Below, piece after piece: positions 48,155 to 53,318 of a stretch of DNA of 64,000 nucleotides. A program made the translations under genes and the position numbers. The notes below the pieces were generated by a model. It searched no databases and had not been told where the DNA came from. It was given only the letters and a program-made list of their open reading frames with translations. This DNA comes from an uncultured Candidatus Saccharibacteria bacterium. GTDB taxonomy: Bacteria > Patescibacteriota > Saccharimonadia > Saccharimonadales > CAZARM01. The number at the start of each line of letters is the position of its first letter. The stretch's first letter is position 1. The stretch is taken from NCBI GenBank assembly GCA_964487615.1, contig CAZARM010000004.1, positions 1,818 to 65,817 on the forward strand, read 5' to 3'.

Positions 48155-48580
48155 TTATTTTCTACTACGTCTGCGCAAGCCAGCTACTTTGAGCCGCACA
48201 TTAGAACGGTCAATTAAGCTCTGGGCGTGATCCAGGGAAATCTGGTCTTTGGCCTCACTTCGCAACTGTCTAGCTCGCTCCAATGCTTTTTCAATTTCTT
48301 TCTCGTTAATTTCTTCGGCCGCGTCGGCTTCGTTTACTAGTATGCGCACCGTGTTATCCAAAACTTCAATCACCCCGCCATTGGTTGCAAAATGTTCCAG
48401 CATATCGTCACTATGATTCTGCTTACGTCGGATGCTGATGACACCTGGCACGGCCAGACTAACCAGCGGTGCATGGTTTTCAAACACCGCAATGTAGCCG
48501 TCAGCACTAGGTAGAATAGCTTCATAGATTTCTTCGCTAAACTTTGTACCATCCAGGGTTACTAGCTCAAGCCGTATCAT
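48155..48580 (-). CDS. atpC: F1 ATP synthase subunit epsilon
   Basis: N-terminal beta-sandwich pattern [11 protein letters not shown]...GYIAVFENHAPLV, helical C-terminus, operon position. Confidence 0.88.
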   Translation of the reverse strand: MIRLELVTLDGTKFSEEIYEAILPSADGYIAVFENHAPLVSLAVPGVISIRRKQNHSDDMLEHFATNGGVIEVLDNTVRILVNEADAAEEINEKEIEKALERARQLRSEAKDQISLDHAQSLIDRSNVRLKVAGLRRRSRK

Positions 48581-48803
48581 CTAGGTAGCCTTCCTCCCAA
48601 ATGTCCTCAAAGGGCTGGTCTGGAGTCGCATAATTTATGATCGCTTTGGTACTTGACCGCTTCATGCGCGCATACCAGACATCATCTACCATCCGAGCCT
48701 CTGGATATTCACCGGTTATCCAAAGATCGTAAGCGTGTCTAACATCTCGGTCGGCACCCACTATCGGTCCGTCAATGTGCATCTTGCTTATGTCCTTAGT
48801 CAT
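48567..48803 (-). CDS. Small hypothetical protein inserted between atpD and atpC
   Basis: 78 aa from MTKDISK. ATGA overlap with the atpD stop and a 14-nt overlap with the atpC start. Fills the whole 220-bp gap. Confidence 0.5.
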
Positions 48804-50182
48804 TTTGACTCTTTCAGTGCGCCTTTCATATAGAACCACGATTCGGGCTTATCGTCATGCTTACCTTCAAGGATTTCTTTAAAGCCAGCGATGGTATCTT
48901 TGAGCGAAACATAGGCACCAGGGTTGCCGGTGAACTTCTCGGCTACGAAGAATGGTTGACTCAAGTATCGCTGAATGCGCCGTGCGCGATTAACCGTCTG
49001 TCGGTCTTCGTCAGATAATTCTTCCATACCTAAAATGGCAATGATGTCTTGCAGGTCTTTGTAGCGTTGCAATATGCGCTGGACTTCACGAGCTACCTCG
49101 TAGTGCTCCTCGCCGACGATTTCCGGATCCAAGATCGTAGAGCTAGACTCAAGTGGGTCAACGGCTGGGTAGATACCGATTTCCGTCAGGGCACGGTTTA
49201 GCGTAATCGTAGAGTCCAGGTGAGCGAATGTTGTGGCCGGGGCTGGGTCAGTTAGGTCGTCAGCCGGTACATAAACAGCCTGGATTGAAGTAATTGAACC
49301 GGTTTTGGTACTGGTTATGCGCTCTTGGAGTTGGCCCATCTCCTGGGCTAAGTTCGGTTGATAACCCACGGCGGACGGTAATCGACCCAGCAGGGCGGAT
49401 ACTTCACTTCCGGCTTGAGTAAAGCGAAAGATATTGTCGATAAACAACAATACATCTTTGCCAGCATCTCGGAAACCCTCGGCGATGGTCAGCCCAGATA
49501 GCCCCACACGTAAACGGGCACCGGGCGGCTCGTTCATTTGACCAAAGACTAGGGAAGTCTTGTCTAGCACACCAGCCTCCTGCATTTCATAATACAAGTC
49601 GTTGCCTTCGCGCGTACGTTCACCTACGCCGGCGAACACGGAGTTCCCGGAGTGAAATTTGGCGATGTTGTTGATTAGCTCCTGGATTAGCACGGTTTTG
49701 CCCACACCAGCACCGCCGAACAATCCAACCTTACCGCCTTTTGTAATAGGTGCAATCAAATCGATGACCTTGATACCAGTTTCCAGGATTTCCGTCTGGC
49801 CAGACTGTTCAGAAAGAGTAGGTGGATCACGATGTATAGCAGCCCGGAGCTTGAAATCATCTTTTTTGCCATCGATGGGCTCGCCAATGACGTTAAACAT
49901 TCGGCCCTGAGTAGCATCACCAACCGGCACGCTGATTGGCGCACCAGTATCAATAACTTTGGCACCACGCTTTAGCCCGTCCGTAGAACCCAAAGAAACC
50001 GCGCGAACAGAATTTTCAGATAAATGCTGGGCTACTTCCAATACAATCGTACTGTCATTTTGCGTAACTTCTAGAGCGTTATAAATCGCCGGCACGTGGC
50101 CTTCAAACTCCACGTCCACCACCACGCCCACAATTTGACTAATCTTGCCACTTTTAACCTTTTCCTTTGTTGCAGTCGCCAT
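48800..50182 (-). CDS. atpD: F1 ATP synthase subunit beta
   Basis: [16 protein letters not shown]-loop and [19 protein letters not shown]. Confidence 0.97.
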
Positions 50183-50475
50183 TATTGATCTCCTTCTGGG
50201 TCATCAACCAACTTAATATCTTCTTGCCCGTGAATAAACTGGTGAGGAAGTAGATATTCCAAGTCCGCTTGGTCGCCTAACGATGCATCGGCTTCTACAG
50301 ATAATTCTCTGAGGCTCGCTCCATGTGTGGCAATAGAAAAAGTTTTCTCAACAAACGTTTTTAGAACACGATTAGTGAGAACTTCGGCTATGTCATACCC
50401 CAGGTGGCTTACTATTTCCTCAACTTTTGCGTATGTTTCTGGATCCGGCAAACTTTCAGCGCGAGGCGGAATCAT
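50182..50475 (-). CDS. Small acidic hypothetical protein inserted between atpG and atpD
   Basis: 97 aa. ATGA overlap with the atpG stop and TAATG junction with the atpD start. Fills the whole 290-bp gap. Confidence 0.5.
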
Positions 50476-51338: not shown

Positions 51339-51386
51339 GAGCGAACTCCGTTTGCTGAATCAAGAATTTGGGATCAAGAACCATCA

Positions 51387-52937
51387 TCAGGCCTTGTCTT
51401 TCGCAGTTTTTGGTTCGTATTGCTTGGCTATGCGCTTGGCGGTGTCTAAAATCAGCTTCTGAGTTTTGTCGTCGGCTTTGTCGCCCTTATTCAAGTTATC
51501 CATGTCTTTGCGGTGGGCGCTGTGAAGTTCGGACAAGAGTGCTGCTTGGGCATGTTTGATTTGGTTCAGCGGTATGGCGTCAAGGGCGCCTTCTGTAGCG
51601 GCCATCAATAGCGCTGTTTGTTCCCAAACACCTAGTGGGGAGTACTGCGGCTGTTTGAGTAGTTCTGTCAGACGTTGACCGCGCTCAATGCGCTGCTTGG
51701 TTTCTGCGTCTAGATCAGTAGAGAACTGCGCAAAGGCCGCTAGTTCGCGGAACTGCGCTAGGGATAGACGTAAGTTTCCAGCCACACTCTTCACGGCTTT
51801 GGTTTGGGCAGAACCACCAACACGCGACACACTGAGACCAACCGATATCGCTGGTCGAATACCCTGGTAGAACAGGTTGGTTTCCATAAATATCTGGCCG
51901 TCAGTAATAGAAATCACATTGGTCGGGATATAGGCGCTGATATCACCGGCTTGGGTTTCGATAATCGGCAGAGCCGTTAGGCTACCCGCTCCGTTATCAT
52001 CAGACAATTTAGCGGCGCGTTCCAGCAAACGAGAGTGCAGATAGAAGACATCACCAGGGTAAGCCTCACGGCCGGGCGGGCGACGCAATAGTAGGGACAT
52101 CTGGCGGTAAGCGGCCGCATGCTTAGTCAGATCGTCATAAATGATCAGAGCATGCTGTTTGGAGTCACGGAAGTATTCGCCCATGCTAGTTGCAGCATAG
52201 GGAGCCAAGTATTGCAGTGAAGCTGGATCGGCGGCCGAAGTGGCCACCACAATGGTCTGGTCCATAACGCCTTCACGCTTCAATCGCTCTATAAGTCGAG
52301 CGGTTTTGCTAGATTTTTGACCAATCGCTACGTAGATGTTGATAACACCGGTGGCTTGCTTGTGCTGGTTGATCATGGTGTCCACGGCTACAGCAGTTTT
52401 GCCAGTTTGACGATCACCGATGATAAGCTCGCGCTGACCACGACCAATTGGCACCATGGCGTCAATGGCGAGCAGTCCAGTCATCAGCGGTTCGTGGACG
52501 CTTTTGCGGTCTAGCACGCCGGGGGCAGGGCGCTCTACGGGACTCTTGTGAGAAGCTTTGATTGGGCCTTTGTCATCCAATGGTTCACCAAGCGGGTTAA
52601 CTACTCGTCCGACAAGCTCAGGACCTACTGGAACTTCAAGAATACGACCGGTTAATTTAGCATTAGCACCGGCTTTGACGCGTCGTTCGTCGCCCAGCAG
52701 CACTGCGCCAATCTCTTCTTCACCCAGGTTCAGGGCAAAGGCCGTGACCGTTCCGCCGTTCACAGTTTCAATATCAATCATTTCGTTATAACCAGCGTTG
52801 CGCAGGCCATAGATCCAGGCCACTCCATCGCCAATTCGCGTAATAATGCCAGCTTCCTCAATACTTGGCCGGGTTTTGAGTTCCTCGATCGCAGCGCGTA
52901 TGTCAGAACTTAGCTCTTTAACGGAAATTTCAGTCAT
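51387..52937 (-). CDS. atpA: F1 ATP synthase subunit alpha
   Basis: [12 protein letters not shown]-loop, [40 protein letters not shown]. Confidence 0.97.
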
Positions 52938-52940
52938 TCC

Positions 52941-53318
52941 TTAGGATCCTCTCTTTAACTTCTGAAGTCGTGCTTGCACACTAAAGTCAGCTACTTTATC
53001 AAGCGCTCGTAATCGTACGCCGCCCAAAGCATCTTCATCCAGCTCTTCATGGACCAACTTGGTTTTGGCGTCAAACAAGGACTCGATTTGCCGCTTGGCT
53101 TCCGGGCTCAAGGACCGGGCTGCATAGGCCGTGATTTCTAGTGCTCCGTCGGCATGATAGCGAAACTCTTCCAGGCCGCGCATAAGCGTGCCTAACTCTA
53201 CCGTCCGCCGTTCCGCAATTAAGTATGCAGCAATGGCCTGAGCCGTACGTTTCTGGTTGGAGCTACGATCCAGCAACTCTGCTACTGCTTGAATAAGTTG
53301 TTTACGGTTGGCGGCCAT
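52941..53318 (-). CDS. atpH: ATP synthase subunit delta (OSCP), unusually short
   Basis: Operon position and C-terminal pattern LGGVRLRALDKVADFSVQARLQKL. Only 125 aa, against 177 aa in E. coli. Confidence 0.65.
   Translation of the reverse strand: MAANRKQLIQAVAELLDRSSNQKRTAQAIAAYLIAERRTVELGTLMRGLEEFRYHADGALEITAYAARSLSPEAKRQIESLFDAKTKLVHEELDEDALGGVRLRALDKVADFSVQARLQKLKRGS

Follow-up and report, generated by a model that had tools for sequence, protein, structure and literature searches.

The 64,000-nt stretch analyzed here (the window) comes from an uncultured Candidatus Saccharibacteria bacterium (contig CAZARM010000004.1). It contains an operon for F1Fo ATP synthase in which two small acidic open reading frames (ORFs) stand between F1 subunit genes: one of 97 aa (X97) between the genes for gamma and beta, and one of 78 aa (Y78) between those for beta and epsilon. 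The atp operon is among the most conserved bacterial gene arrangements, and its F1 junctions are normally short and uninterrupted.

Two small genes within the atp operon

All eight canonical F1Fo subunit families (a, c, b, delta/OSCP, alpha, gamma, beta and epsilon) were detected by Pfam, co-directional and in canonical order, which bears out the original prediction, made from the sequence by itself, of an otherwise canonical atpBEFHAGDC cluster. With the two small ORFs, the order on the minus strand is atpB-E-F-H-A-G-X97-D-Y78-C. The features are as follows (profile names and E-values are from Pfam; SD, Shine-Dalgarno; pI, isoelectric point).

55045..55074, minus strand: candidate operon promoter, TTGCAA-18-TATACT with TG, of low confidence (consensus scan only)
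54154..54999, minus strand: atpB, Fo subunit a, first gene of the operon (ATP-synt_A, E = 1.9e-40)
53885..54124, minus strand: atpE, Fo subunit c (ATP-synt_C, E = 1.7e-8)
53318..53866, minus strand: atpF, stator subunit b, 182 aa (ATP-synt_B, E = 1.6e-16, residues 31-160)
52941..53318, minus strand: atpH, delta, 125 aa, a short form (OSCP, E = 4e-13, residues 4-123)
51387..52937, minus strand: atpA, alpha, 516 aa (ATP-synt_ab, ATP-synt_ab_C, ATP-synt_ab_N)
51339..51386, minus strand: alpha/gamma junction, an empty slot here (48 nt, non-coding, SD-like GGAG)
50472..51338, minus strand: atpG, gamma, 288 aa, complete (ATP-synt, E = 3.3e-82, profile positions 4-285 of 285)
50182..50475, minus strand: X97, acidic ORF of 97 aa (pI 4.4) that fills the gamma/beta junction (recognized by its junctions and coding evidence)
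48800..50182, minus strand: atpD, beta, 460 aa, complete (ATP-synt_ab_N, ATP-synt_ab, ATP-synt_VA_C)
48567..48803, minus strand: Y78, acidic ORF of 78 aa (pI 4.5) that fills the beta/epsilon junction (recognized by its junctions and coding evidence)
48155..48580, minus strand: atpC, epsilon, 141 aa, last gene of the operon (ATP-synt_DE_N, E = 6.8e-17; DE C-terminal helix domain weakly matched)

X97 fills the 289 nt between atpG and atpD: its ATG and the atpG stop codon share an ATGA, and its stop codon (TAA) and the atpD start codon share a TAATG. Y78 fills the 219 nt between atpD and atpC; an ATGA joins its start to the atpD stop codon, and its 3' end overlaps atpC by 14 nt (ATGATACGGCTTGA). 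Both arrangements had been described in the original prediction and were confirmed at these gap sizes. A TAATG also joins atpF and atpH. SD motifs were found before X97 (GGAGG, 7 nt before its ATG), atpD (AAGGAG) and atpC (GGGAGGAAGG), with a weaker one, GAAAGAG, before Y78. Promoter-like sites within the operon were in modest excess only (13 versus 7.0±3.1 in shuffles), terminator-like sites were not enriched over shuffles, and no Rfam match or RNA element was detected in the operon. The overlaps, the upstream SD motifs and the lack of a clear promoter or terminator excess suggest that X97 and Y78 would be translationally coupled members of the operon.

The interior of X97 remained open in 49 of 20000 mononucleotide shuffles (0.25%) and that of Y78 in 221 of 20000 (1.1%). 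A codon model, for which 41 long ORFs of the window served as training set, gave in-frame scores per codon of 0.216 for X97 and 0.214 for Y78, compared with 0.17±0.06 for chunks of real genes and -0.49 off frame. The GC content at third codon positions (GC3) was 0.35 in X97 versus 0.51 in the flanking atp genes; that of Y78 was typical (0.51). The region from Y78 to atpC was present as identical copies in two independent Logan assemblies. We also considered that the ORFs might be frameshifted extensions of gamma, beta or epsilon, a check that had been suggested along with the original prediction. This was rejected because all three subunits are complete without inserts: gamma covers profile positions 4-285 of 285, beta aligns with its relatives over residues 1-460 and epsilon matches from profile position 2. 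X97 and Y78 look like real genes for small acidic proteins on the same strand as the operon, and are more than chance ORFs. As the original prediction had held, they are very probably expressed members of the operon, judging by the overlaps, SD motifs and gene-like codon usage.

We could not detect homologs of X97. Among 5.8 billion proteins (indexed search) and 1.84 billion cluster representatives (exhaustive phmmer search), X97 matched only itself, and there were no homologs in a scan of JGI metagenomes, a scan of IMG/VR viruses or a tblastn search of GenBank phages. When X97, Y78 and the neighboring junction ORFs of close relatives were compared with Pfam, PHROGs, NCBIfam and PADLOC, nothing significant was found; a weak Pfam match of X97 to HHH_9 (E = 0.032) was under the cut-off and was disregarded. 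Monomer models made with AlphaFold2 (AF2) had low confidence (predicted local distance difference test, pLDDT, of 59 for X97 and 52 for Y78). In the X97 model, helices at 12-64 are followed by a disordered acidic tail. Foldseek searches of the PDB with these low-confidence models gave nothing better than E = 3. No blastn or tblastx similarity within the window pointed to an origin of either ORF by local duplication or from a neighboring gene, and no repeats or attC-like sites flank X97 or Y78.

For Y78, a single homolog was found, on a 905-bp contig (P0003/L003), with 71% identity and likewise directly overlapping atpC; no further homologs turned up when the alignment of the two sequences was run against metagenomes, or in the viral scan and the tblastn search of phages. 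Between the two sequences, nonsynonymous divergence (dN) was 0.21 and synonymous divergence (dS) 0.92, giving a ratio (omega) of ~0.23. The dN of atpC on the same contigs was 0.055, i.e. Y78 evolves about four times faster than epsilon. Y78 has a conserved acidic-aromatic motif at its C-terminus. Its last 20 codons differ by six synonymous and two nonsynonymous changes, and the first seven codons differ by synonymous changes only. Thus, given an omega of ~0.23 and a synonymous bias at both ends, the Y78 peptide, from its first ATG, is under purifying selection, and the dN/dS comparison that had been proposed for the two ORFs came out positive for this one. The conservation of residues 1-7 through synonymous changes supports the first ATG (at 48803), which also gives the ATGA overlap, as the start; a 90-aa form of Y78 started by GTG was rejected on both counts. 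In L003, the sequence upstream of the Y78 homolog (positions 1-301) retains no more of atpD than about its last 12 codons; what comes before these is unrelated and promoter-like (TTG...TATAAT). This layout represents either a rearranged operon or a chimeric short contig.

The same junctions in related genomes

Loci of relatives are labelled L0xx. By beta, the closest to the window are L084-L087 (96, 91, 90 and 90% identity) and L004 (89%), all aligned over residues 1-460. Their F1 junctions contain the following.

L084: alpha/gamma, not on the contig; gamma/beta, an ORF ending in ...GEQ-stop, with TAATG upstream of atpD; beta/epsilon, an 86-aa ORF
L085: alpha/gamma, no ORF; gamma/beta, a 70-aa and an 87-aa ORF; beta/epsilon, not intact
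L086: alpha/gamma, no ORF; gamma/beta, empty; beta/epsilon, a 73-aa ORF
L087: alpha/gamma, a 101-aa ORF; gamma/beta, an 88-aa ORF; beta/epsilon, a 68-aa ORF
L004: alpha/gamma, no ORF; gamma/beta, a 100-aa ORF; beta/epsilon, empty

None of the junction ORFs of these five loci resembles X97, Y78 or one another. Conservation of both ORFs in related genomes had been put forward as the first check of the original prediction, and here it failed: in the closest relatives (beta 89-96%), the junctions are occupied by unrelated ORFs or lack an ORF. X97 has no ortholog at its operon position, and Y78 has one only, that in L003. When the window and L084 were aligned at the nucleotide level, homology stopped at the atpD stop codon and was back at the atpC start. 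By atpC, L003 and L084 are at a similar distance from the window (dN 0.055 and 0.073, respectively), but only L003 retains Y78, whereas L084 has an unrelated ORF of another length in its place. This argues for replacement, at least at the beta/epsilon junction of L084.

We then considered 80 loci retrieved with the window gamma as query. They belong to Saccharibacteria/Saccharimonadales metagenome-assembled genomes (MAGs), or to unclassified or differently labelled bins, and the best gamma identity was 74%. A junction was scored as carrying an insert at a length of at least 100 nt, with the following counts.

atpB-atpE: inserts in 3 of 66 loci
atpE-atpF: inserts in 1 of 66 loci
atpF-atpH: inserts in 0 of 58 loci
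atpH-atpA: inserts in 1 of 59 loci
atpA-atpG (alpha/gamma): inserts in 24 of 82 loci
atpG-atpD (gamma/beta): inserts in 33 of 81 loci
atpD-atpC (beta/epsilon): inserts in 18 of 74 loci

Together, the three F1 junctions had inserts in 75 of 237 cases versus 5 of 249 for the four Fo/stalk junctions (odds ratio 22.6, Fisher p = 7e-21); the largest insert was 1226 nt. Same-strand ORFs covered at least 90% of the insert in 72 of the 75 cases, whereas ORFs on the opposite strand did so in 14. Each occupied junction held one to three ORFs. Of the 66 occupied junctions, 25 began with a 4-nt and 14 with a 1-nt overlap between the upstream stop codon and the first ORF. At the other end, the last ORF stopped within 20 nt of the following start codon in 64, and in 22 the two overlapped by 8 nt. 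For the 88 junction ORFs, median values were 98 aa in length and 4.6 in pI (below 5.5 in 84%), compared with a median pI of 7.7 for the large ORFs of the window. Relative to the flanking atpA, atpG and atpD, their GC3 was reduced by 0.106 on average, and it was lower in 93%. No Pfam match was found for 81 of 82 junction ORFs, the exception being in L014, and none matched PADLOC. Occupancy climbed towards the lineage of the window: it was 22/35 at gamma identities of at least 60%, 21/59 at 55-60%, 23/110 at 50-55% and 1/18 below 50%.

Most junction ORFs are singletons; a few families exist. At the gamma/beta junction, L020 has module c, L021 modules b and c, L023 modules a, b and c, and L015 module a followed by x and y; from these arrays it appears that modules are gained or lost individually. 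Module c is conserved (51-59 aa, ending in ...EMDTKEQ-stop) and lies directly upstream of atpD in L020, L021 and L023 (6825-6995 in L023), with zero, one or two extra ORFs upstream of it. One family was found at two junctions, gamma/beta in L006 and alpha/gamma in L008 (E = 3.6e-4), and two others are kept at alpha/gamma across genomes (L049/L064/L070/L071 and L010/L012/L018). The alpha/gamma junction is also occupied in the Nanosynbacter relative L082, by an ORF of 69 aa. For most families synonymous sites are saturated, so that dN/dS could be measured for few pairs: omega was ~0.34 for L016/L017, and for L021/L023 dN was 0.24 with dS saturated. Where measurable, selection on junction ORFs is purifying but relaxed.

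Mobile or selfish DNA was also seen at these sites or next to them. The beta/epsilon junction of L014 (3963-4337) holds a 124-aa gene of the 23S rRNA intervening sequence (IVS)/Avd type, encoding a four-helix bundle (PF05635, E = 2.9e-35; PHROG Avd of diversity-generating retroelements, E = 2.1e-11). In L054, a palindromic element of ~110 nt with tandem GTCACGA heptamers, similar to miniature inverted-repeat transposable elements (MITEs) or repetitive extragenic palindromes (REPs), occupies both the alpha/gamma and the beta/epsilon junction of one operon (1288-1396 and 4145-4271). In L085 (beta 91%), a tyrosine integrase gene lies on the opposite strand directly after atpD (3788-4642), where atpC would be; the 5.6-kb contig has no atpC, and this operon appears to have been broken by a mobile element.

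Elsewhere in the window, positions 8768-23727 (minus strand) form an island of low GC content (0.42-0.46 versus ~0.49-0.50 elsewhere). It starts with a large serine recombinase (8768-10264; Resolvase, Recombinase, Zn_ribbon_recom) and also has a VanY-type peptidase (18909-19595), a GNAT protein (22363-23013) and, at 20903-22366, a series of small acidic ORFs that overlap and whose N-termini are alike (MATPE.., MTTPENE..). An integrated phage or mobile element is the probable nature of the island. With its small acidic ORFs and low GC, it is like X97 in character, not in sequence. Closer to the operon, a gene for a predicted membrane protein of 267 aa with no Pfam match (46537-47340, plus strand) lies between genes for an MIP channel and a UvrD-like helicase. 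In the syntenic L087 the latter two are adjacent and the 267-aa protein gene is absent; thus, variable genes also occur outside the atp operon.

The delta subunit was predicted to be truncated to mainly its C-terminal half. It is indeed short (125 aa), but it keeps ~70% of the protein, and its length is the norm of the clade and not a local defect. In Pfam, delta matches OSCP profile positions 49-170 of 172, and it aligns with solved 178-aa delta chains of the PDB at an offset of ~48 residues; i.e. about the first 48 OSCP residues are missing, the N-terminal helical domain has lost its first part and retains the remainder, and the C-terminal domain is whole. An upstream in-frame stop codon and the TAATG shared with atpF leave no room for extension, and no OSCP-like part was detected in the atpF product by Pfam. 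In relatives the median length is 133 aa, with 124-138 aa in 55 of 59 loci. The short delta is a clade-wide trait of the retrieved Saccharibacteria that is independent of the inserts, not a genome-specific truncation. The N-terminal domain of delta binds the N-terminal helices of alpha, which makes the missing segment structurally interesting and raises the question of how the stator holds alpha3beta3.

Origin and role of the junction ORFs

On balance, we lean towards the view that X97 and Y78 occupy two of three insertion-tolerant F1 junctions that collect fast-turnover, mostly unrelated orphan ORFs, and that they are cargo kept in coupled translation. In this process, foreign DNA, or DNA of unknown origin, would land between essential F1 genes, and the versions to persist would be only those through which ribosomes still reach the downstream gene. 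Such survivors would have an ORF on the same strand without interruption; its start would overlap the stop codon of the preceding gene, and its 3' end would carry an SD motif and overlap the next start. The insert would be co-transcribed with the operon and translated by termination-reinitiation coupling, and the products might be lineage-specific cargo proteins that ride on operon expression and not stoichiometric subunits of ATP synthase. We infer that the function of X97 and Y78 is not linked to ATP synthase.

Several points weigh against the cargo view, however. The source of the inserts was not found in phage, plasmid and viral searches, and no paralogs of junction ORFs were detected elsewhere in ~0.8 Mb of loci and window. 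Even in the comparison of the window with L084, synonymous sites have reached saturation (proportion of synonymous differences, pS, 0.73), and part of the unrelatedness of junction ORFs may be divergence beyond recognition and not replacement. The loci of the census were retrieved with one query only. In addition, a simple safe-harbor idea does not explain the restriction to F1 junctions, which spares the delta/alpha junction and could instead point to an F1-related role, and the ORFs could be alike in their small size and acidity because they have a function in common.

The latter points lead to the proposal that the junction ORFs encode fast-evolving, lineage-specific proteins that bind F1, such as regulators, inhibitors or assembly helpers, perhaps for an ATPase that may run in reverse. 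Their location beside gamma, beta and epsilon would then be a matter of function. Lineage-specific accessory, regulatory or inhibitory subunits of F1 were also the suggestion of the original prediction, for which unrelated sequence in the gaps of relatives, as was found here, had been named as a refutation. The proposal would account for the confinement of inserts to the three F1 junctions and their near-absence from the four Fo/stalk junctions, for the small acidic class that the ORFs share (gamma and delta are basic, pI 9.3), for families that are kept at one junction across genomes (the two alpha/gamma families and module c) and for the purifying selection on Y78. It would also fit the observation that nearly all Patescibacteria retain an F-type ATPase although they have no respiratory chain, and that this ATPase possibly runs in reverse (PMC11665869). 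On the other hand, the ORFs have no homology to known accessory or inhibitor families of ATP synthase (Pfam, NCBIfam), their lower GC3 suggests weakly adapted or foreign genes, and accessory subunits are made less plausible by the lack of conservation (unrelated ORFs or none in the closest relatives), by the variable ORF number (zero to three per junction) and by selfish elements at the same or adjacent sites (the IVS/Avd gene, the MITE-like repeat and the L085 integrase). We regard F1-binding proteins as an unlikely explanation.

It is also improbable that the peptides are irrelevant and that the ORFs are translated spacers which maintain coupling to atpD and atpC, with acidic, partly disordered products being the least harmful. 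The ORFs do fill their gaps exactly and overlap both neighbors in nearly all of the 66 occupied junctions; their turnover is extreme, with mostly orphan sequences, their GC3 is below that of neighboring genes, the AF2 models have low confidence and X97 ends in a disordered acidic tail. However, many relatives have short non-coding junctions without an insert, so that a spacer is not needed, and some families are conserved in distant genomes. The values for L016/L017 and L021/L023 and the omega of Y78, with the many synonymous changes in its conserved C-terminal motif, also speak for a peptide that matters. A pure spacer is contradicted for Y78 but may still apply to X97.

Quite unlikely, in our estimate, is a cassette-like system in which the three F1 junctions serve as slots, promoterless orphans are swapped at stop/start overlaps and the products act as strain-specific modulators of the ATPase, which may run in reverse in these epibionts, or as effectors for which high constitutive expression is needed. 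Like integron cassettes, the junction arrays occupy a fixed site with one to three small ORFs that are unrelated, lack promoters and depend on one upstream, and some modules are common to different arrays. Unlike integron cassettes, they have no attC-like repeats and, with junction ORFs that overlap by 1-8 nt, no room for them; no integron integrase is present in the operon of the window.

Finally, it is hardly credible that X97 and Y78 are chance frames, or errors of assembly or frameshifts in spacer or neighboring genes: X97 is indeed present in one NCBI record only, but the shuffle probabilities (0.0025 and 0.011), the gene-like codon scores, the completeness of gamma, beta and epsilon without inserts, the identity of the Y78 region in two independent assemblies and the same architecture in dozens of independent MAGs all stand against it.

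Full-text literature searches revealed no prior description of ORFs within these atp junctions, and the wider comparative pattern appears not to have been described before. The sequences suggest that an ultrasmall epibiont clade may tolerate, and keep translating, a changing set of orphans exactly at the F1 junctions. Natural competence is a trait of Saccharibacteria, which incorporate DNA through homologous recombination, and since some of them are naturally transformable, key deletions and recodings would be feasible (PMC11665869). If the pattern holds, it would offer a natural setting in which to study the uptake of new or foreign genes by an operon that is essential and translationally coupled. 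It would also provide a defined and easily located set of dark-matter proteins of Saccharibacteria, probably highly expressed, and a testable link, or proof of none, to the role of the F-type ATPase without a respiratory chain.

Relation to known systems

Accessory ORFs of atp operons, such as atpI, atpZ and atpR/urf6, form conserved families of membrane proteins encoded at the 5' end of the operon. Inhibitors of F1 (the epsilon C-terminal domain, the zeta subunit, IF1 and cyanobacterial AtpTheta) are also conserved families and are usually encoded elsewhere. X97 and Y78 are similar to both groups in being small and tied to F-type ATP synthase genes, and some of the known genes are likewise co-transcribed. 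However, X97 and Y78 are soluble, acidic and unconserved and lie between F1 genes, and neither had a significant match to AtpI, AtpZ, AtpR, zeta, IF1, AtpTheta or the epsilon C-terminal domain in Pfam and NCBIfam.

Phage morons and homing-endonuclease genes provide another parallel, as these are also unrelated extra genes at conserved junctions that vary among close relatives and have an atypical composition (for the junction ORFs, lower GC3). In contrast to them, X97 and Y78 have no clear promoter or terminator of their own, no nuclease domain and no phage homolog (searches were negative). Unlike morons, they reside in a core operon of a cell and are integrated seamlessly through start/stop overlaps. 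Genes of the 23S rRNA IVS/Avd family (PF05635) are similar in that they are small genes inside highly conserved loci, and the L014 junction holds one, but X97, Y78 and the other 80 scanned junction ORFs are not members of this family.

A further comparison can be made with the F1-like ATPase clusters of Mycoplasma, which are reported to be separate paralogous clusters of seven genes with conserved extra genes (PMC3369863). Both cases concern an F1-type cluster of a bacterium with a reduced genome that includes non-canonical extra genes; the difference is that the operon of the window is a genuine eight-gene F1Fo operon, and that its inserts are variable orphans.

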